Positions 5,123 through 30,938 of a stretch of DNA of 64,000 nucleotides are shown here, one piece after another. Position 1 is the first letter of the stretch. The number at the start of each line of letters is the position of its first letter. The stretch covers positions 458,342 to 522,341 of the forward strand of contig CP066681.1 in assembly GCA_016432265.1 (NCBI GenBank). Direction: 5' to 3'. Source of the DNA: Micavibrio aeruginosavorus (GTDB lineage Bacteria > Pseudomonadota > Alphaproteobacteria > Micavibrionales > Micavibrionaceae). Position numbers and translations under genes: made by a program. The notes beneath the pieces were generated by a model that did no database searches, was not told where the DNA came from, and saw nothing but the letters and a program-made list of their open reading frames with translations.

Positions 5123-5239
5123 GGGGGCTCCGTTTCGTATTATTTTTCAAGAATTTCAGTGGCCGGACAATACTCGGACTTGACAGATAAAGCAAAAACC
5201 TTTTTCTTGTGCGGGCTTAACGGCGACCTTGGTTCCGAT

Positions 5240-5325
5240 GGAGAGATGGCTGAGCGGTCAAAAGCACCTGACTGTAAATCAGGCGCCTTCGGGCTACGTA
5301 GGTTCAAATCCTGCTCTCTCCACCA
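5240..5325 (+). tRNA. tRNA-Tyr (anticodon GTA), long variable arm
   Basis: GGAGAGA acceptor stem pairs with TCTCTCC, then discriminator A and CCA. The anticodon loop is CTGTAAA with GTA at the anticodon position. The T-stem is GTAGG/CCTGC with loop TTCAAAT. Confidence 0.9.
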
Positions 5326-5361
5326 CCAAGTTTAACTTATTGATATAAAATAATAAAAAAA

Positions 5362-5383
5362 CCCCGCAGAAGCGGGGTTTTTT
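5362..5383 (+). terminator. Rho-independent terminator after tRNA-Tyr
   Basis: CCCCGC-agaa-GCGGGG hairpin followed by a TTTTTT run. Confidence 0.8.
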
Positions 5384-5488
5384 ATGCGTCTGGGTTTTGG
5401 GATCACTCGGGGAAAATTGTCTTAAGAGATTGAAAAATCATCATTTTCTCCACGACCATTAGTGCAAGCTGCCCCCTAGGCAGGCGGG

Positions 5489-5686
5489 TTAAAAACATGT
5501 GAAGTACCGATTTTGCAGATTATAATAGCAGCCATTATAATTTCCAATGTGTCTGGCGTGCGATGATTGGACAATTGCAAGTGTTGCCGCCAAGACAATG
5601 CCGACGATGGATATACCGCTTATTATCCTTATAAAGGAAGCTTGTGCTTTATTCGGCGTCTTAATGTTCATAAAGACTTCCTGCAC
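5489..5686 (-). CDS. Hypothetical small membrane protein (single predicted TM helix)
   Basis: The 65-aa ORF contains the hydrophobic stretch FIRIISGISIVGIVLAATLAIV. It lies in AT-rich DNA with no other support. Confidence 0.25.
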   Translation of the reverse strand: MQEVFMNIKTPNKAQASFIRIISGISIVGIVLAATLAIVQSSHARHIGNYNGCYYNLQNRYFTCF

Positions 5687-5949
5687 TATGTTGTATGTAC
5701 AAGAGTCATGTAGGTTTCACGTTGTGAATCTTTATCGGATTCATCCAGGCAGCCATTGCGAAGAACCAGGCAGTATGTAGTGATAATGATATTGAATGTT
5801 GATTGGATCAGTATCTCGATATCTTCATTCCCTGTCTTTTTTGCTTCGCCCTTAAGGTAAACCAAGGCTTCGATAATGCCGACTATTCTTGTGTAATCGT
5901 ATTCTTTAATTTCATGCGGCCCGTTTAGAATCTTCATATTCTCCTCCAT
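5686..5949 (-). CDS. Hypothetical 87-aa protein immediately downstream of the LuxI-family gene
   Basis: ORF co-oriented with and overlapping the 3-prime end of the luxI-type gene. The arrangement recalls the small GinA-type proteins found downstream of ginI in acetic acid bacteria, but no sequence comparison was possible. Confidence 0.4.
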   Translation of the reverse strand: MEENMKILNGPHEIKEYDYTRIVGIIEALVYLKGEAKKTGNEDIEILIQSTFNIIITTYCLVLRNGCLDESDKDSQRETYMTLVHTT

Positions 5950-6553
5950 TTAGCAAAAGTACAGATTCTTTGATTTGGCTTGTTTGCCGTATGCGGAGTA
6001 GCTGTCGCGGCGTGATTTCCATGACGGCAGCCCTGATCAGCATGTTGTCTACCTCTATTCCACCGCCCAGATATTCGAAAGAGCAACCCGCCTTTCCAAA
6101 AACTGACCGGAGTATGAATGTCGGCATGACGCCAATTATATTTTTGATTCCTAGCCGCATTCCCAGCTCTACATGAGCCGCCACAAGCTCATTGCTAATA
6201 ATCCTGCGAACGTGGGCGGGGAGGCTTCTTTCAACGCAAAAGCGCGTTGACTCCCATACGTCATGATCTGTGAATATAGACTGATCGTTTACAAGCTCTG
6301 GCCATAAATCTTTAATCATGCAGCATTGAGAAACCGGCGTTAGTCTGCTCAACCCCAATGCTTCTCCAGAAACTTCATCGCGGTAGACAAGGTATATTGT
6401 AGCAGGGGTGTCGTATTGGTCGTACTCCATCCCGTTATAAGAACTGACGGCGTATCCCTGCCTTTCTTTGAAGGAGCGATATCGAAGCCGGAATAGTGAG
6501 GGGAATGCCGGCCCGTATTCATGCAAGTTATTATAGGTCAGGTAAGATATCAT
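5912..6553 (-). CDS. Acyl-homoserine-lactone synthase, LuxI family
   Basis: Autoinducer-synthase motifs are present: FRLRYRSFKERQGY near the N-terminus, a conserved acidic/Trp block, and WESTRFCV matching the LuxI ExSRxxV block. The 213-aa length is typical. Confidence 0.85.
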   Translation of the reverse strand: MISYLTYNNLHEYGPAFPSLFRLRYRSFKERQGYAVSSYNGMEYDQYDTPATIYLVYRDEVSGEALGLSRLTPVSQCCMIKDLWPELVNDQSIFTDHDVWESTRFCVERSLPAHVRRIISNELVAAHVELGMRLGIKNIIGVMPTFILRSVFGKAGCSFEYLGGGIEVDNMLIRAAVMEITPRQLLRIRQTSQIKESVLLLNGGEYEDSKRAA

Positions 6554-6607
6554 GGCCCCAGGTTCTTCTCGTAGGGCTTATTAAAGAAGATATTGCGCGC
6601 GAATTAA

Positions 6608-6625
6608 ATCACGAGAATTCGTGAT
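6608..6625. promoter_or_regulatory. lux-box-like palindrome ATCACGA-GAAT-TCGTGAT, about 63 nt upstream of the luxI-type start
   Basis: Dyad with perfect 7-bp arms, lying between the luxR-type stop and the luxI-type start. A second copy sits at 8552-8569. Confidence 0.6.
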
Positions 6626-6627
6626 AT

Positions 6628-7395
6628 TTATAAATGCACCAACCCTAAAGTGATGGCTTTTACAACGGCCAAAACGCGGTTGTTTGCTTCAAGCTTCCTG
6701 AAGACTTTGCGCATATGTGAATCAACCGTGTTTTTGCTCATATTCAAAATGAGGCCTATCTCTGTGTCAGTTTTTCCAAGCGCGGCCCATTTCAGAACTT
6801 CACGCTCTTTATCCGTCAAAACTATATTTTGTTCTTGCTCTTGCTCTTGCGTCTTTCGCCTCAAGATTCTTTTATAGGCAATGTAGAAGTGGTTGCAATA
6901 TGCATTAACCATATCGACATTGCCATCAAACGCATCTTTCCTTTCGGTAGTGGCCAGGGCAATGCCGGCCAGCTGGTTCTGTGGCCCCCGTAGCGGCGTG
7001 CATACGCCGTTGCGCAATCCAGCTTCGTCCCCCATATCCAGGCAGAGCTTCTGTTTCCTTGAGAGAAGTATGCGCTTTGGAATATCATCCCATGAAAAAG
7101 TATCGATCTGCGTAGCGCCATAGAGCATCACAGGATCTATGTATTTCAGGTTATTGCTGCTGTAGTATTTTAACCAGCTCTCAGGATAGTTATGCACGAT
7201 CCCAAAATCTGCTTCCTGCCCGATATCATGGTGATCTGTGGAGAGTGAGAATATGGCCCTATCCAGTCCGTGCTGAGCAACGGTTTTTAAAAAAATAGAG
7301 AATAGTGTATCAACGTCACGAGCCTGGTTAGCTTCCGTAACATAATCTTCGAAAGAGTAATTTCTCAGTCCTGCGGACACAGCTAATCCCCCCAC
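6628..7395 (-). CDS. LuxR-family transcriptional regulator (autoinducer-binding domain plus C-terminal HTH)
   Basis: Its C-terminus reads LTDKEREVLKWAALGKTDTEIGLILNMSKNTVDSHMRKVFRKL, a GerE/LuxR-type HTH. The N-terminal ~170 aa resemble an AHL-binding domain (YxxxW...D, WDD motifs). It lies directly upstream of luxI on the same strand. Confidence 0.85.
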   Translation of the reverse strand: MGGLAVSAGLRNYSFEDYVTEANQARDVDTLFSIFLKTVAQHGLDRAIFSLSTDHHDIGQEADFGIVHNYPESWLKYYSSNNLKYIDPVMLYGATQIDTFSWDDIPKRILLSRKQKLCLDMGDEAGLRNGVCTPLRGPQNQLAGIALATTERKDAFDGNVDMVNAYCNHFYIAYKRILRRKTQEQEQEQNIVLTDKEREVLKWAALGKTDTEIGLILNMSKNTVDSHMRKVFRKLEANNRVLAVVKAITLGLVHL

Positions 7396-7610
7396 ATGGT
7401 CAAGCTTAACCGGTCATATACAACCTCAAGTTATATTTTTCAAGAAAAATTACAATAATTCTTGATCCAGTTGTACATTTAACCTGTTGATTACAGAGGT
7501 GTGCATAGGGCCAGATCGGCCTGTTTTCTAAAAAAACATGGAAAAACAAGTAAATAGCAGCATGATGCCAGGCGCATGTGAATAGGCTGGTCGTCCAGTC
7601 AGATGTCTGC

Positions 7611-8510
7611 TCAGCCCGCCTGCATGAGTTTTCTGTGTTCTTGCAGCAGCGGTTTAACGGCTTCAGGAAGAAATTCTTTAAATCCCCTGTTTTTAATATT
7701 CTCCCCTTGCAAAAGTAAGATGGGGTCATGACCCTCGATGCAACCTAGGTTGGGGGCGTGGACAAAGTAGCCTATCAATCTTTGTAATTTTTCAGGAAGC
7801 GCCCTGGCCGTGTCTTGCGGTATGGCGAGGTAACTGTTCTCTGCCTGCCTAAGCCAGCCTAAACAGTAGCTGACAACCACCCCGGTTCGGCTTCCGGCGC
7901 TGTTGTTAGTTCCCCCTGCATGGAGTAATGAGCCAAGCCATATAAGTACAGATCCTGCTTTCATAACGGCCGGGATGATTTCGTGATTGCAAGCGCTCCT
8001 GTCCCGTGGCCACTTATGACTGCCTGGCACAACAAGCGTGGCGCCGTTTTCGTTTGTAAAGTCGTCTACGGCCCACATGCAATTGACCATAGCTTCAGTA
8101 CCTTCATGGTCAAAAGGAAACATGACGTCATCGCGATGCAGGGGCTGTCTGAATTCACCGGGGCCAATTCTTATGGCTTGCGTTAAATGCAACTGATATT
8201 GCTCGCATGATCGCAGCAAAAAGTGATCCATGATGTTAAGAACGGTATTATGGGCTACCATAGACCATGATTGCCGTGACTTTACAAGCAACGAGCTGAG
8301 CCTCTTGGTTTTATATCCGTAGAAATCGCCATGACAGCTATCTGTTTCATCGAAATGAGGTTTAAGCTCTTGAGACAATCTGAGCACCTGCTGTTCGGAT
8401 AAGATACCTTTTATAATGATACAGCCATCTGTCTCTAATATTCTTTGAATGACCCTTATGTCTTCATATATGCCAACCTGTTGGATTCTGGCCATGATGC
8501 TACCTCCCAT
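7611..8510 (-). CDS. Phytanoyl-CoA dioxygenase (PhyH) family Fe(II)/2-oxoglutarate oxygenase
   Basis: HRDD...(facial-triad His-x-Asp), ATLVVPGSHKW and a distal His are typical of PhyH-family proteins. The probable true start is MARIQQ at 8495. Confidence 0.7.
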   Translation of the reverse strand: MGGSIMARIQQVGIYEDIRVIQRILETDGCIIIKGILSEQQVLRLSQELKPHFDETDSCHGDFYGYKTKRLSSLLVKSRQSWSMVAHNTVLNIMDHFLLRSCEQYQLHLTQAIRIGPGEFRQPLHRDDVMFPFDHEGTEAMVNCMWAVDDFTNENGATLVVPGSHKWPRDRSACNHEIIPAVMKAGSVLIWLGSLLHAGGTNNSAGSRTGVVVSYCLGWLRQAENSYLAIPQDTARALPEKLQRLIGYFVHAPNLGCIEGHDPILLLQGENIKNRGFKEFLPEAVKPLLQEHRKLMQAG

Positions 8511-8551
8511 AATCTGAGCAAATACACTAAGGGTTTCCCTGCTTGAGAAGA

Positions 8552-8569
8552 ATCACGAAATCTCGTGAT
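8552..8569. promoter_or_regulatory. Second lux-box-like palindrome ATCACGA-AATC-TCGTGAT in the divergent intergenic region between the PhyH and desaturase genes
   Basis: Same 7-bp arms as the palindrome at 6608-6625. Its centre is about 65 nt upstream of the PhyH MARIQQ start and about 67 nt upstream of the desaturase ATG. Confidence 0.55.
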
Positions 8570-8626
8570 TCATGGTGAGCCGGCTTTTCTACTATTCTGG
8601 CCGGCAGACAGTAAGGGAGGTTCAAT

Positions 8627-9550
8627 ATGCCCGGTGTTAGCAGAGATTACTTGGCGTCCAGAGTCACTACTGAGCATTTGAAAATGCTGCATAAACGCTC
8701 TGTATTTCCGTGGCTGAAGGACGCGATTATAGACTGGGTCGTGATTGCGGTCGCCATAGCTGCGGCTGGAATATGGAATAATCCCTTGGGCTACGTAGCG
8801 GCGGTTATCGTCGTGGGGAACAGGCAACATGCTCTGGCCTGCCTGGGGCATGATGGGACGCATTTCCTCCTGTCTACTAAAAGAAAACTGAATGATACCT
8901 TGTCCGGGTTTTTAGCCTGGTATCCATTAGGCATTACGAATTCCGGCTACAGGAGCCTTCATAACAGGCACCATATATACTTAAACACGGAAGACGACCC
9001 TGAAATACACCATAAACGTTCCCGGGCGCCGCAATGGGATATACCTATAACGCCCCAGAGAATTATAATGTACGTGCTGCTTGATCTGGTGGGTTACTCA
9101 ATTCCTGATTATTATATAATCGTAACCTATTCTAAAGCCACCAGAAAAACGGAATATGTGCTGTTGGCCGCTTATCATCTGTCGTTTATTGCTGTCTTTC
9201 TGGCGGCGGGCTTATGGTGGGTTCCCTTGATATGGTACGTATCCTTAGTTACCTCATTCATGATGTTTTTTAGGCTGCGCCTTTGGCTTGAGCACCAGGG
9301 AACTGATTTGGTGCATAGGCTGGAGTTGAATGGGTGGCAATCTGCATTGTTTTATCCGCATTTGGCCTGGCATCACTGGGAACACCATCAATGGCCTGCC
9401 GTTCCGTACCATCGCCTGCCTGAGTTAAGAAAAATGGTTGAAGATGTTCCGGTGATTACGCTTCAGCAACTTTGGGAACACTTTAATTCATTGCCAAACA
9501 TATCTTCAGGCACGCCATTGAGTAATGGCATACCTGCAGATTCGGCTTGA
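8627..9550 (+). CDS. Membrane fatty-acid desaturase/hydroxylase family protein (three histidine boxes)
   Basis: Histidine boxes HDGTH, HNRHH and HHWEHH, with several TM segments. Confidence 0.75.
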   Translation: MPGVSRDYLASRVTTEHLKMLHKRSVFPWLKDAIIDWVVIAVAIAAAGIWNNPLGYVAAVIVVGNRQHALACLGHDGTHFLLSTKRKLNDTLSGFLAWYPLGITNSGYRSLHNRHHIYLNTEDDPEIHHKRSRAPQWDIPITPQRIIMYVLLDLVGYSIPDYYIIVTYSKATRKTEYVLLAAYHLSFIAVFLAAGLWWVPLIWYVSLVTSFMMFFRLRLWLEHQGTDLVHRLELNGWQSALFYPHLAWHHWEHHQWPAVPYHRLPELRKMVEDVPVITLQQLWEHFNSLPNISSGTPLSNGIPADSA

Positions 9551-9624
9551 ATGGAATAATTGTTTTAGAATGAATAATATTCATAAATGAATTATGCTCT
9601 GGAATCTGCGGTTTATAGTCGGTG

Positions 9625-10005
9625 TCAGGCGCTTTTGCTGTTGAGGCGAACAAAATTCTCTACCAGACGAACGATATTATTCTTAGTGGACGTATCCTGA
9701 ATCTTCTGCCAGTTGGCGATAAGGGTTCTTGTCTGGGGATCGTATAGGCTGTCTACCTCATCACAATTCGAGACTTTCTCGTATATATCGGTGAATTTCC
9801 GTATGGGAACATTCAGGAAGTTAGCGATCTGCAATAAACAGACGACTGTAATTCTGCTGGAGCCGGATTCGTATTTTTGTACCTGCTGGTATGAGACTCC
9901 TATGGCACGGGCTACTTCTTCAAGACTCCTGCCTTGGGCTTTTCTTTCAGCGCGAATGATTTTTCCCAGTATCACGTCGCGACTGTCTTCATTTGCCTTA
10001 CCCAT
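9625..10005 (-). CDS. XRE-family helix-turn-helix transcriptional regulator
   Basis: The N-terminal region RAERKAQGRSLEEVARAIGVSYQQVQKYESG matches the Cro/C1-type HTH pattern. Confidence 0.65.
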   Translation of the reverse strand: MGKANEDSRDVILGKIIRAERKAQGRSLEEVARAIGVSYQQVQKYESGSSRITVVCLLQIANFLNVPIRKFTDIYEKVSNCDEVDSLYDPQTRTLIANWQKIQDTSTKNNIVRLVENFVRLNSKSA

Positions 10006-10338
10006 ATCACCTCTTGCGTTTTTAACTAATGTTGAATAGCGGGTGCAGTGATTTTACTAGCAAAGTGGTACCATGGAAACTGAGTTGCCAAGCTAACAAT
10101 ATTTGACGATATCCTACTTAATCTACAACCTTTAATAAATTTATGTGAAAACGCGCACTTGAGCAGGCCCTCGCAAGTGAGTTCGGTCTTGTCGGCATAT
10201 TGGGGAGCAAGTCACTTCGGGAGTCGTTAACTGTAGGCTGCTTCCACCGGCTATCAAGTTTAAATACTTTATGCAGAGGTGAAAACGGCAAGATGCCCCG
10301 TAAGCCGGGGAATTTTTATTCTCTGCCGCGGGGGGTTT

Positions 10339-13300
10339 TTAGGCCACAATCAACCCATTATCATACAGGGTCTGGACGTTTAGGCCCGTGACGGCGCTTA
10401 ATGTGGCGACATTTGTCCACGACGTACCCCCTGTGAGGCCATCGGCGTCAATTCTGACTGTTGTATTGCCGCCTAAAACGCTAAAGGAAACGAAGTTGTC
10501 TATGTCATCTACGCCGGGCGTGAAACCGGCGAGAATATTGCTGATATCAAGAATATCAAACTGGGTGGTGCGGTAATCTGTAATTGTATCGACGCTTGAA
10601 ACGTTATCCAGAACAAATCGGTCAGTGCCGTTACCACCTGTAAGCGTGTCAGCGCCCGCGCCACCTTGAAGCCAATCGTTACCGTTATTGCCGACCAGGG
10701 TGTTGTTGCCTGCTGATCCATACAGCGTGTCGGCGCCAGCGCCGCCGTATAAATTTTCGAAGTCAAAGAAAGTATCGCCGTTGGCTTCGCCGCCAGAGGC
10801 TGTCCCGGCTCCCAGATTAACGGACACGCCTGCCGTATCGTTATCATAACGCAGACCGTCCGTGCCGTTGCCGCCGTATAGTGTGTCGGCGCCGCTGCCG
10901 CCGTATATTGAATCGTTGCCGTCAAGCCCATAGATCATATCGTTACCGGCGGCTCCGGACAGAGTATTGTTTCCGTTCGAACCTGTCAGGGTATCGGCAG
11001 CGCTGCCGCCATACAGATTCTCAAAATTTGAGATGATATCGCCTGTGGCATCACCGCCTGCGGCTGTATTGTTTCCGATATCGACAACAACAGATACCGT
11101 GCTGCTATCGTAACGCAGGCTGTCTGTGCCGTTGCCGCCGTCCAAGGTGTCGGCGCCGCTGCCGCCGTATATTGAATCGTTGCCGTCAAGCCCATAGATC
11201 GTATCGTTACCGGCGGCTCCGGACAGAGTATTGTTCCCGTTCGAGCCTGTCAGGGTATCGGCAGCGCTGCCGCCATACAGATTCTCGAAATTTGAGATGA
11301 TATCGCCTGTGGCATCACCGCCTGCGGCGGTGTTGTTGCCTATATCTACGGTGACGCCGGAGGTGTCTGAATCGTAGCGCAAGCTATCCGTTCCTGTGCC
11401 GCCGTCCATTGTATCTGCGCCAGTGCCGCCATAAATAGTATCATTGCCGCCGTCGCCGTAGATCGTGTCGTTGCCGTTCTGTCCGTAGATCGTGTTCGCT
11501 GCTGTCGATCCTGTGATCGTATCGCTTCCCGACCCGCCATATATATTCTCAAACCCTGATACAACATCTCCTTCCGCTTCGCCGCCGCTGCCCAGGCCTG
11601 TCAGAAGGTTGATGGCAACACCGATTGTGTCCGCGTCGTAGCGAAGGGCATCTGTACCGGCCCCGCCCGTCAGTGTGTCCGCGCCCAGACCTCCGTATAC
11701 CGTGTCGTTGCCGTCGCCGGCGTCTATGCCGTCGTCGCCGTCAAGACCGTATATAACATTGGCAAGGGCCGACCCGGTAATTGTATCGGAAAAAGCGCTG
11801 GCATAAACATTCTCAAAATTGGAAACCACATCGCCTTCTGCGTCTCCGCCGCTTCCCAGCCCGGTCAGTAGGTCTACCGTGACGCCGCTTACCGAAGCGT
11901 CATAACGCAAATTGTCCGTTCCGGCACCGCCGTCCAGCACATCGGCTCCGGCGCCGCCGTAGACCGTGTCGTTGCCGCCGTCTCCGTATATGGCATCATC
12001 GCCATCCAGGCCATAAATAATGTTGGCAGCAATGGTTCCATATAAGGTGTCGTTATAAGAAGACCCGGTCAGATTCTCAAAAGAGGAGATTGTATCCGTC
12101 CCCGCGCCGCCGGTATTTTGCGCCGTTGTCACTGAAAGATTAACAGTCACGCCTCCGGATGATGATTGGTAGGTCAGTGTATCGGTGCCGCCGCCGCCTG
12201 AAAGGGTGTCGTTGCCATCCCCGCCGTCAATTGTGTCGTTGCCGTTGCCGCCGTTAATCACGTTATTGCCCGAATTGCCTGATAGAGTATCGCTGTAGGA
12301 AGATCCGGTCAGATTCTCAAAAGAGGAGATTGTATCCGTCCCCGCGCCGCCGGTATTCTGGGCGGTCGCCAGGGCAAGGTCAACAGTCACGGCAGAAGAT
12401 GATGTCGCATAGGTTACCGTGTCGGTGCCGGCCCCCCCTGTGAGCGTATCGTTGCCAGCGCCGCCGTTGATGGTATCATTGCCGTTGCCGCCATCGATAA
12501 TGTTGTCGTCCGTGCTGCCTGTGAGCGTATCATTGAAGGAAGAGCCTGTCAGATTTTCGAAGCCGGATATTGTATCCGTGCCGCCGCCGCCCGTGTTCTG
12601 AGCTGTTGCAACCGCCAGATTGACAGTGACAGCCGAAGCGATCGTTGCATATGTCAGCGTGTCCACGCCGGTGCCGCCTATAAGGGTATCATTACCGGTG
12701 CCGCCGTTGACGATGTCGTTGCCGGCGCCGCCGTCTATGGTGTTGGCTCCTGTGTTTCCGGTTAGAATGTCATCGAAATCGGAGCCGGTCAGGTTTTCAA
12801 AGGAAGCAATAGTGTCGGTTCCTGCGCCGCCGGTATTCTGGGCGGTCGCCAGGGCAAGGCTGATAGCTATGCCTCCTAGCGAGCCTGTATAGCTCAGAGT
12901 ATCTGTTCCCCCGCCGCCATTCATGACGTCATCGCCGCCACCACCTTCTATGACGTTGTTCCCTGCCGTTCCAGTAATGTTATCGTTGAATGCCGAGCCG
13001 ATGACGTTTTCAAACCCGGATATTGTGTCGTTCCCCGATCCGCCGGTGCTCTGGGTCGTGGTTATGGCCAGATTGATCGTAACGTCGGAAACAGCATCGG
13101 CGTATGACAGGGTATCTATGCCGGCATCGCCGTCCAGCGTATCATCCCCAGATCCGCCATCGATGGTATCGTTACCGTTTCCGCCTGCGATCACATTGTT
13201 TCCGGAATCTCCTGTGATGGCGTCGTCAAAAGCCGAGCCTGTGATATTCTCGATAGATAGCAGACTATCTCCGTTACCGTATCCATCATTGCTGGCGCTG

Positions 13301-15303
13301 CCAGCCGCCAGGTTGGCGCTTATTCCGGCTGCTGCTGCGGCATAGCTGGCTGTATCCATGCCATTTCCGCCGTTGAGCGTGTCTGCTCCGTCCTCTCCGC
13401 TCAGGATATCGTTACCGTCATTACCGATCAGGATATTGCCGCTGCTGTTCCCTGTCAGAACATCATCAAAAGCCGAGCCTGTGATATTTTCAAAATTATA
13501 GAGCGTATCGGTGCCTGCGCCTATAGTGTCTTGCGCTACGGTCAGGCTTATATTGACATTAACGCCCAAGGTAGCTGAGGCGTAATTGACCGTATCAATA
13601 CCCGCGCCGCCATCGAGTATGTTATTGCTCGCCGTCCCTGTAAGGATATCGTCGTGGGCAGAACCAGTTAAATTCTCAAAGTTCGATAAGGTATCGCTGC
13701 CGGATCCGCCTGTATTTTGTGCAGTTGTAGCAGATAGGTCAACCGTTACCCCGGCGGCTGCGCTGGCGTAAGTCAACGTATCGCTATCTGCGCCGCCATC
13801 GAGTATATCGTCGCCGTCGCCGCCGTCTATGACATCAAGGCCTTCATCGCCATTGATGGTATCTGCGCCGCCGCCGCCGTTGATCGTATCATTTCCTGCC
13901 AAGCCGTAAATCTGGTTGCTGCTTGATGAACCATTAAGAAGATCGTCGCCAGCAGTGCCGTAAATCACACTGCCGTCGACTTGAATGGCGATCGTTTCCG
14001 TATAAAATGCGCCTGCGGCATCTGTAACCCTGACATCTATATTGATAATATCGCCGTAGGTATGGCTTGCCAGTCCTCCTGCCTTTAAGAGAACGCTGTT
14101 ACCCGATATTTCAAAAGCATATGTAGCGCCGCCGACTATACTGAATGTCAGTATGTCCCCGGCATCGGGATCTGTGGCCGAAAGCGTCGATACCAGCGTT
14201 CCCGCCGGCGCATCAAGAAGGACGATATCGCCGACATAGCTAATGTCTGTCGGCGCGTCATTAAGAAGATCGGCAAGTGTGCCCGGTGTGATCGTACGGT
14301 CAGAGAACTGAAATGTTTCAATGCCCTTAATCGTGTCTGTTCCCTCAAATCCGCGCCGATCCACGATTGTGAAGAACGTGGTAGAGGTGTCGTAGGTAAT
14401 ATTATAATCGCCCCATTGGCCGCCAAGAACCAGGATATCCGTTCCGGAGCGGCCGTCGATATAATTATTCCCGCTGTCTCCGCTCAGGGTGTCATTGTAA
14501 GACGATCCCCAGAGATTTTCAAAATTCGATACCGTATCAATCCCGCCGGAACCGGTATTCTGTGCTGAGGTTACTGCCAGGTTGACGGTGACTCCTGAAA
14601 GCATTCCCACGTAGGATAGGGTGTCTATGCCGTTGCCGCCATCCAGCGTATCGTCCCCGGCGTCGCCGCGGATATTGTCATCGCCATCCCCGCCCAGAAT
14701 AATGTCGTTGCCAGCGGCGCCTTCCATAAAGTTTGAAGCGCTGTCGCCCGTCAGGGAGTCGGCGTAAGCTGTCCCTACAAGGTTCTCTATGTTGATGATT
14801 GTGTCTGTGCCGGCCCCCAGAGTATCCTGAGCGACATAAATTCCAAGGTTCACGGTTATACCGGCAGAGGCTTGGGAATAATTAAGAATGTCGATACCCG
14901 CTCCACCGTCGATTGTGTCGTTGCCCGTCATTTCGATGATTGTGTCGTTGCCTGAGCCGGCGTCAAGAATATCGTTGCCGCCGCCGCCATTCAGCAAATC
15001 GTTGCCGTCGCCACCGTACAGGGCGTCGTGTCCATGCATGCCAGTAATGGTATCGCTGCCCTCATATCCATAAACGGTATCTGATGCCAATGTTCCGGAA
15101 ATGATATTGTTTGCGCTATCGCCATAGACGGGGAGGGCGCTGCCCCATCCTTCGCCGCTCAGGGTGAAGGAGAGGCTTGTCAGGTCGAATGTGATGTCGT
15201 TGAAAACGATATATTCGACATCGTTGTAGACGCGGTCGGCGCCGTATCCTGTGGAAGGATTGTTGGTATCCGCCGCGCAATGTGTCCGCGCCGTCATCGC
15301 CAT
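10339..15303 (-). CDS. Giant RTX/hemolysin-type calcium-binding repeat protein, C-terminal ~1650 aa, with a type I secretion C-terminal target domain
   Basis: Dozens of GGxGxDxL nonapeptide-containing ~90-aa modules ([29 protein letters not shown]...). The C-terminus reads [39 protein letters not shown], as in T1SS C-terminal target domains. There is no N-terminal signal peptide. Confidence 0.8.
10861..11330. repeat. Near-identical ~270-bp tandem modules within the RTX gene (one of several module families)
   Basis: 10861-11060 and 11131-11330 are about 95 % identical. They encode RYDSx[79 protein letters not shown]. Confidence 0.75.
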
Positions 15304-30877: not shown

Positions 30878-30938
30878 TTATATATAACTATATATATTTA
30901 TTGTAAATTAACTAAATCATATATATAGTTATATATAA
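30878..30938. promoter_or_regulatory. 19-bp perfect inverted repeat TTATATATAACTATATATA / TATATATAGTTATATATAA separated by 23 bp, in the divergent promoter region
   Basis: Read directly at 30878-30896 and 30920-30938, in an ~85 % AT spacer between the RHH gene and the flotillin-like gene. Confidence 0.8.

Follow-up and report, generated by a model that had tools for sequence, protein, structure and literature searches.

In the LuxR-type quorum-sensing systems of Aliivibrio fischeri, the lux box occupies a class II position near -42.5. The tra boxes of TraR, on the Ti plasmids of Agrobacterium tumefaciens, are 18-bp inverted repeats at class II sites about 45 nt 5' of the start, and one tra box, the central 6 nt of which are uncontacted, drives the divergent traCDG and traAFB operons (PMC3907764). 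In Sphingomonadaceae, a novR-novI-phyH synteny has been described and quorum-sensing control of phyH has been speculated upon (Gan et al. 2013, 2015, 2016; Hao et al. 2010; PMC3704786, PMC5012321, PMC4288048). Here we analyse a stretch of 64,000 nucleotides from Micavibrio aeruginosavorus (contig CP066681.1, positions 458,342 to 522,341; "the window" hereafter), in which a luxR/luxI pair, a gene for a PhyH-family dioxygenase and a divergent gene for a desaturase-like protein are accompanied by two copies of one palindrome, ATCACGA-N4-TCGTGAT. We consider it likely that the LuxR protein encoded between these dyads has them as its cognate operators, and that it activates transcription from them in the class II manner.

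The palindrome occurs exactly twice in the window, at 6608-6625 (ATCACGAGAATTCGTGAT) and 8552-8569 (ATCACGAAATCTCGTGAT), as the preliminary description of this DNA had stated, and no further match was found in the window with up to two mismatches allowed. At the second site the symmetry widens to 9-bp arms (GAATCACGA/TCGTGATTC, spanning 8550-8571); with arms of 7 and 9 bp, the two sites have the dyad symmetry of lux/tra-box operators (18-22 bp). The distances from the dyad centres to the start codons, given earlier as about 63, 65 and 67 nt, measure 63.5 nt for luxI, 65.5 nt for PhyH (ATG 8495) and 66.5 nt for the desaturase-like gene (ATG 8627). Among the 17 perfect 7-4-7 dyads in the window it is the sole recurring one, and a repeated dyad appeared in none of 400 windows simulated with a first-order Markov model (analytic expectation about 5e-4). 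These figures, and the fact that the likeness between the two sites of the window stops at the dyad, speak against the repeat as a chance coincidence or a functionless remnant of duplication, a reading to which the presence of only two copies and the post hoc choice of the motif lend some weight.

The comparative data bear on the same point. The locus set comprised 92 loci (L001 and onwards) from LuxR-homologue look-ups and one profile scan of GTDB genomes, and genes were mapped across it by tblastn. A core of desaturase-like gene (in the opposite orientation), PhyH, LuxR and LuxI, usually with a small open reading frame (ORF), was found in the window and 22 other loci (LuxR identity 47-79%), on contigs labelled Micavibrio or Alphaproteobacteria but also Acidobacteriota (Bryobacterales, Terriglobia), some of them longer than 1 Mb. 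The dyad stands at both of the same positions in all 23 of these cassette loci, over a range of LuxR identity of 47-100%, and the flanking intergenic DNA has otherwise diverged among them. When the two intergenic regions were searched without bias for their best inverted repeat, a dyad was recovered at both places in most loci, the rest being read directly; where this symmetry search placed the synthase-upstream copy, its centre lies 61-75 nt 5' of the luxI ATG, and in the loci that the search missed, direct reading shows the luxI-side site to be present as well. The dyad is a perfect palindrome of 18-22 bp in L001, L002, L010 and L019 (perfect ATCACGAGATCTCGTGAT in L001 and L002). More distant luxR/luxI loci with PhyH but without the desaturase-like gene (L035, L036, L077, L083) also have, at PhyH, its own copy of the locus-specific box.

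No convincing third copy of the dyad was found within 10 kb on either side in any related locus. In the metagenome collection, a scan for ATCACGAGRTYTCGTGAT gave 48 stretches, of which eight are the desaturase/PhyH sites of further cassettes, with AAAA/TTTT flanks; the other 40 or so are scattered outside cassettes, have unrelated flanks and are about as numerous as chance predicts, and the metagenome-wide scan gave no second recurrent genomic context for the motif. With no third copy in the window or around the related loci, the concern raised in the preliminary description, that the motif might simply be frequent by chance, falls away. A dyad that is conserved, and that covaries as described below, over 23 loci while its flanks diverge effectively refutes the chance or duplication reading. 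In several loci on MFD-series contigs of metagenome-assembled genomes (MAGs; L016-L018, L024, L025, L028, L030, L078), the tblastn matches to PhyH, the desaturase-like protein, LuxR or LuxI are split over two to three frames, which may reflect assembly indels rather than true pseudogenes; the dyads in these loci are unaffected.

The two sites of any one locus are always of the same class, and about nine classes are seen between loci. Their half-sites are ATCACGAG, ATCACGTG, CCCACGCG, GTCACGCG, CCTACGA, CCTACCA, TTACTTGA, CTACTTAG and yTACGAGA. As operators, one class reads ATCACGAGnTCTCGTGAT, and the others are ATCACGTGATyACGTGAT in L007, CCCACGCGATCGCGTGGG in L011 and L019, GTCACGCGATyGCGTGAC in L020, ACCCTACGAnnnTTCGTAGGGT in L021 and L025-L028, a CCTACCA variant in L024, ATTACTTGATCAAGTAAT in L022 (where the gene order is rearranged), CTACTTAGCTAAGTAG in L015 and yTACGAGA in L014.

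These changes follow the recognition helix of LuxR. Half-sites that read ..ACG always go with Asp at residue 220, and those in ..ACC or ..ACT with Asn, Arg, Gly or Lys (Asn in L015, L022 and L024). Residue 221 is Ser, Thr, Ala or Leu where position 3 of the half-site is C (ATCACG, CCCACG, GTCACG), and Phe, Trp, Tyr or Met where it is T (CCTACG, yTACG, TTACTT). The pattern holds in loci at only 32-40% LuxR identity; examples among distant loci are T-V-D-Y with CCTACG in L085, K-T with GTCACC in L060, and R/G-F with CCTAyC in L038, L045 and L041. Across about 14 operator classes the association is perfect, as counted without phylogenetic correction. D220, S221 and R224 of the LuxR align with R206, V207 and R210 of TraR, whose sequence was verified against PDB chain 1h0m_A before alignment; among the primary contacts of TraR with DNA are R206 and R210 (PMC7856919). 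The shared LuxR-type operator suggested in the preliminary description is thus supported at the level of sequence by conservation at both positions, by the match between the sites within each locus and by covariation with the LuxR helix.

The same data bear on whether another protein might read the dyad. XRE-family proteins bind short palindromes, and a gene for an XRE/HTH_3 regulator adjoins the cassette in the window, L001, L002 and L007, so that the dyads could be its operators and not those of LuxR. LuxR, however, is present in every locus and the XRE gene is not: the Pfam-annotated gene calls show none within 10 kb on either side in L010, tblastn finds none in L015-L018, L022, L030, L051 and L078, and the gene is relocated in L011, L019-L021 and L024-L028. 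The dyad is also kept in LuxR-solo loci that have no XRE gene, and it is the LuxR helix residues that the operator changes follow. We therefore consider the XRE regulator a very unlikely binder of the dyad and have rejected it, given the many dyad-bearing loci in which its gene is missing or relocated. In a search for a separate operator 5' of the XRE gene, the upstream regions aligned poorly.

The position of the dyads relative to the promoters suggests how LuxR would act on them. The 23 loci were anchored on the dyad centre, and -10-like hexamers were profiled by their offset from the edge of the 22-bp dyad. Towards luxI, a hexamer that matches TATAAT in at least four of six positions and ends in T starts at offset 21 or 22 in 13 of the 23 loci (TTnAAT, TyTGAT, CATAAT); towards PhyH, TAnnnT starts at offset 21 or 22 in 14 loci and nAnnnT in 21; and towards the desaturase-like gene, 19 loci have TAnnnT starting at offsets 20-22. 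Such hexamers are almost absent from other offsets. If the predicted -10 hexamer spans -12 to -7, the dyad centre falls at about -42.5 to -44.5, which, relative to these predicted hexamers, is the position of a class II site (about -42 to -45, over the -35 region). The best -35 match at 16-18 bp spacing averages 2.4-2.9 of six positions, near random, and a scan for consensus sigma-70 promoters returned nothing at the luxI, PhyH or desaturase promoter places. In the GC-rich class (L011 at 8967-8996 and 10734-10763; L019, L020), a shared GTTAC(G/T) lies behind each operator at the expected -35 position, and the likeness between the two promoters runs slightly past the dyad.

The preliminary description had placed PhyH, and possibly the desaturase-like gene, in the quorum-sensing regulon. 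For PhyH, this placement is supported by the conserved dyad together with the position-locked -10-like hexamers towards it; the inclusion of the desaturase-like gene is likewise supported, because -10-like hexamers are locked at a set offset in its direction too. Read-through from the PhyH promoter into luxR would also be possible, since a minus-strand scan of the interval between the two genes detected neither a terminator nor a consensus promoter, and in L011 and L019 this interval shrinks to about 60-70 nt.

A spacing held constant at three promoters would favour activation over simple repression. LuxR might nevertheless bind the dyads as a repressor, in the manner of EsaR or as apo-LuxR blocking the -35 region, with AHL (acyl-homoserine lactone) relieving the repression, and occupancy of the would-be -35 region, which the dyad overlaps, can indeed block RNA polymerase. 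We regard this as unlikely, as the distance from operator to -10 is fixed within 1-2 bp at three promoters over 23 loci, which is typical of the face-of-the-helix dependence of class II activation and is unneeded for repression, and as the near-random -35 and weak -10 sequences resemble those of activator-dependent promoters. Moreover, a box upstream of luxI normally gives positive autoinduction.

A further alternative is that the palindromes function mainly as RNA hairpins, the luxI-side copy being the intrinsic terminator of luxR and the other copy incidental. The luxI-side dyad does lie directly after the luxR stop, a T-run follows it in L001, L002 and L010, and the predicted folding energies are -7.5 to -22 kcal/mol. 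The second copy, however, is flanked by divergent start codons, a place at which no transcript ends; most classes lack a U-tract 3' of the dyad, among them the window and the GC-rich classes (L011, L019-L028), and a terminator scan was empty at either site. Nor would a terminator need to resemble the second site or to change in step with the LuxR helix. This reading, which leaves the site between the divergent genes unexplained, is accordingly rejected as scarcely credible.

Several points weigh against the dyads as class II operators of LuxR. The covariation is uncorrected for phylogeny, and the operator classes follow clades in part; the dyad departs from the canonical lux-box consensus CTG-N10-CAG; the promoters were placed by predicted -10 hexamers, which are weak (3-5 of six matches); a site over the -35 region fits repression too; and the T-run after the luxI-side dyad in AT-rich loci could additionally help to terminate luxR transcription.

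Considering all of these observations, we propose the following model, in which we infer the binding of LuxR, its dependence on AHL, activation rather than repression, and the transcription starts. A LuxR dimer, presumably loaded with AHL from the adjacent LuxI, would bind each 18-22 bp dyad with one recognition helix per half-site. Since the dyad centres near -43 to -45 over a poor -35 region, some 43-45 bp 5' of the inferred start, LuxR would recruit RNA polymerase as a class II activator. From the operator after the luxR stop, O(I), it would drive luxI and the translationally coupled small ORF, closing an autoinduction loop; from O(PD), it would drive two divergent promoters at once, that of PhyH (with possible read-through into luxR) and that of the desaturase-like gene. 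The features of the window and of the related solo loci are collected in Table 1.

Table 1 Features of the quorum-sensing cassette in the window (coordinates of the window unless a locus is named); offsets are counted from the edge of the 22-bp dyad.
Feature	Position	Strand	Remarks
Proposed operator O(I), 18-bp dyad ATCACGAGAATTCGTGAT	6608-6625		2 nt past luxR stop; centre 63.5 nt 5' of luxI ATG (6553)
Proposed operator O(PD), 22-bp dyad GAATCACGAAATCTCGTGATTC	8550-8571		18-bp core 8552-8569; between divergent PhyH and desaturase genes
Predicted -10 of luxI promoter, TTTAAT	6580-6585	-	offset 21
Predicted -10 of PhyH promoter, TAGTGT	8524-8529	-	offset 21
Predicted -10 of desaturase promoter, TACTAT	8590-8595	+	offset 19; alternative TATTCT 8593-8598, offset 22
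Small conserved ORF, 83 aa	5686-5937	-	HYS17_02210 in source MAG; overlaps luxI 3' end
luxI, AHL synthase homologue, 213 aa	5912-6553	-	PF00765, 83.4 bits (cut-off 24)
luxR, AHL-receptor-type regulator, 250 aa from ATG 7380	6628-7380	-	PF03472, 86.5 bits; PF00196 (GerE), 57.2 bits
PhyH-family Fe(II)/2-oxoglutarate dioxygenase, 294 aa from ATG 8495	7611-8495	-	PF05721, 132 bits
Membrane fatty-acid-desaturase/hydroxylase-like protein, 307 aa	8627-9550	+	PF00487, 103 bits (cut-off 29.7)
XRE/HTH_3 regulator	9625-10005	-	cassette-linked in some loci only
tRNA-Tyr	5240-5325	+	left edge of low-GC island
Solo-locus dyad, L003	10761-10778		about 72 nt 5' of small-ORF homologue
Solo-locus dyad, L004	10771-10788		about 72 nt 5' of small-ORF homologue
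Solo-locus dyad, L008	8483-8500		about 72 nt 5' of small-ORF homologue

The proteins of the cassette carry the hallmarks of their families. LuxI, which exceeds the PF00765 threshold, has TofI and BjaI as its nearest solved structures and scores 57 bits against the TraI equivalog (cut-off 250), and is by its sequence a generic AHL synthase and not a TraI equivalog. The LuxR, which shares 100% identity with P0001 from a Micavibrio aeruginosavorus MAG, combines an N-terminal autoinducer-binding domain with a C-terminal GerE-type helix-turn-helix. Nine hallmark residues of AHL-responsive LuxR proteins are present (W69, Y73, D82, P83, W97, G125, E192, L196 and G202), which align with W57, Y61, D70, P71, W85, G113, E178, L182 and G188 of TraR and are invariant in the clade alignment. 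An alternative GTG start of luxR lies at 7395; the resulting 255-residue form has no exact database match, the database entry being the 250-residue ATG form.

The PhyH-family protein has the iron triad HxD...H, as HRD and the distal His of LLHAGG in its translation. Its nearest solved relatives by sequence are small-molecule tailoring dioxygenases such as DhiD, SwnH1/2, PrhA, AusE, EasH and AsqJ (E 1e-29 to 1e-16); human phytanoyl-CoA hydroxylase matches far more weakly (E 7e-4, against 1e-29 for tailoring enzymes), and an orthologous relationship to that enzyme was rejected. The internal MARIQQ start (ATG 8495) favoured in the preliminary description is borne out by a Shine-Dalgarno sequence, GGGAGG, at 8503-8508, 7 nt upstream, and by orthologues that align from the same start; the alternative ATG at 8510 overlaps this Shine-Dalgarno sequence. 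The desaturase-like protein shows the His boxes HDGTH, HNRHH and HWEHH of its superfamily. No solved relative was found for it by sequence, and its match to the L-arginine hydroxylase GntB is weak and sub-threshold.

The small ORF is probably co-transcribed with luxI. It belongs to a family of at least 310 uncharacterised members of about 75-80 residues, and is predicted to form a two-helix hairpin (predicted local distance difference test, pLDDT, 82-97 across residues 11-60). The top-scoring matches of the family, P0071-P0076, are about 140-152 residues long, about double the usual length, perhaps through tandem duplication or fusion. As to a likeness to TraM, no Pfam or PDB sequence match was obtained, and the model is a generic hairpin without a Foldseek match at E<2. 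In every case a dyad-bearing promoter lies 5' of the small ORF, which follows luxI in most loci and the desaturase-like gene in L014 and L015; in the solo loci it comes immediately behind the dyad.

These LuxR-solo loci, in M. aeruginosavorus ARL-13, HCB189 and relatives, have no nearby luxI or XRE gene. They retain ATCACG-N6-CGTGAT immediately behind luxR and 5' of a small-ORF homologue, and it looks as though luxI has been deleted there from an ancestral luxR-box-luxI-small ORF arrangement. The solos are tandem, two in number, in ARL-13 and HCB189. The ARL-13 genome paper reports two LuxR genes, with LuxI located elsewhere, and gives no operator analysis (PMC3189940).

In the window, the cassette lies in a low-GC island at about 5200-10200 (GC 0.45-0.47, against about 0.55 around it), which adjoins the tRNA-Tyr gene. 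A terminator-like hairpin, ACCCCGCAGAAGCGGGGT, follows the tRNA at 5361-5378; the tRNA is the only Rfam match in the island, and no att-like direct repeat of its 3' end was found at the far island border. Plasmid or conjugation genes often adjoin the cassette in other loci (ParB/RepB in L001, a relaxase and coupling protein in L011, RPA in L010). A search of PLSDB plasmids returned no close relative of the cassette LuxR, the best match being 32% identical. The cassette also occurs on long contigs assigned to Acidobacteriota (L016, 1.48 Mb, Bryobacterales; L021, 1.92 Mb, Terriglobia; L019, L020 and L024-L028), which suggests, for contigs as assigned to their bins, cross-phylum transfer of a complete AHL circuit. 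We propose that the unit is a self-contained, horizontally mobile cassette, residing in this Micavibrio genome in a low-GC island next to tRNA-Tyr. Adjoining the island is a gene for a 1654-residue RTX/hemolysin-type repeat protein (10339-15303, minus strand), near which no dyad was found in the window, and a similar giant repeat protein is encoded just 5' of the LuxR solos of ARL-13 (L004 2446-8076). Elsewhere in the window, at 30879-30937, overlapping perfect palindromes of the TATATATA type are clustered in AT-rich intergenic DNA and are unrelated to the quorum-sensing dyads.

Taken as a circuit, the cassette offers what would be the first cis-regulatory argument for a PhyH-type dioxygenase, a desaturase-like enzyme and a small helical protein as direct targets of LuxR. 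In many bacteria phyH genes adjoin luxI/luxR, and the cassette makes the speculative link between phyH and quorum sensing testable, as a predicted circuit with defined operators and promoters. More tentatively, and in our view rather doubtfully, the sole direct targets of the module could be its own synthase and two tailoring enzymes that modify the AHL or its acyl precursor at quorum, or that make a quorum-dependent lipid metabolite, with the small protein as a feedback modulator of LuxR. If this were true, desaturation or hydroxylation of the AHL at quorum would let a population switch or diversify its signal, and the unexplained phyH-luxI linkage of many Alphaproteobacteria would be explained. 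The Micavibrio predator studied here has a complete AHL circuit on a tRNA-linked island, and its sequenced relatives keep only LuxR solos, the operator and the small protein. The approximately nine natural operator/regulator pairs with matched changes also form a data set for the DNA-recognition code of the LuxR family, in which Asp versus Asn/Arg at the position of TraR Arg206 tracks G versus C/T and a small versus bulky next residue tracks C versus T; such pairs would be useful for the design of orthogonal quorum-sensing parts. In the searchable literature, no paper was found that contains the box sequence, and none that names luxI, PhyH, desaturase and luxR together.

Compared with the described systems, the cassette resembles the tra system in its 18-bp dyad, in the class II-type position of the dyad, in the copy 5' of the AHL synthase gene and in its association with a mobile element, and O(PD), like tra box I, is a single box between two divergent promoters. 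The tra box reads ATGTGCAGATCTGCACAT, and its central AGATCT is the same as in the consensus box of L001, L002 and L010. The outer half-site, however, is ATCACG here and ATGTGC in the tra box, and the cassette LuxR is not a TraR orthologue, being only 24% identical to TraR and scoring 59 bits against the NF010444 equivalog (cut-off 250); the position of TraR Arg206 is occupied by Asp220, whereas Arg210 is kept as Arg224. The predicted targets also differ, being a dioxygenase, a desaturase-like enzyme and a small helical protein in place of conjugation or replication genes, and no traM homologue was recognised in the cassette.

With the lux box of A. fischeri and the las/rhl boxes of Pseudomonas aeruginosa, the cassette shares a class II-type placement and a dyad 5' of the synthase gene, a position that gives positive autoinduction in those systems. 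LasR is the closest solved relative of the cassette LuxR (81 bits), but the recognition helix reads T-V-D-S-H in the latter and A-N-V-N-F-H in LasR. At the places where the canonical consensus has CTG/CAG, the 20-bp core of the cassette dyad (AATCACGAGA/TTTCGTGATT) has TCA/TGA. The dyads are a distinct, new sequence class of a known kind of operator, the lux/tra box, and not a categorically new element. The ATCACG class looks like a derived specificity, because distant relatives with Phe at the second helix position use CCTAC/CCTGT-type boxes. Finally, the cassette shares with the sphingomonads the genetic linkage of luxR and luxI to a PhyH-family dioxygenase; there, phyH lies 3' of luxI and no operator has been reported, whereas here it lies 5' of luxR under an operator-bearing promoter of its own, its partners being a desaturase-like gene that diverges from it and a small helical protein.

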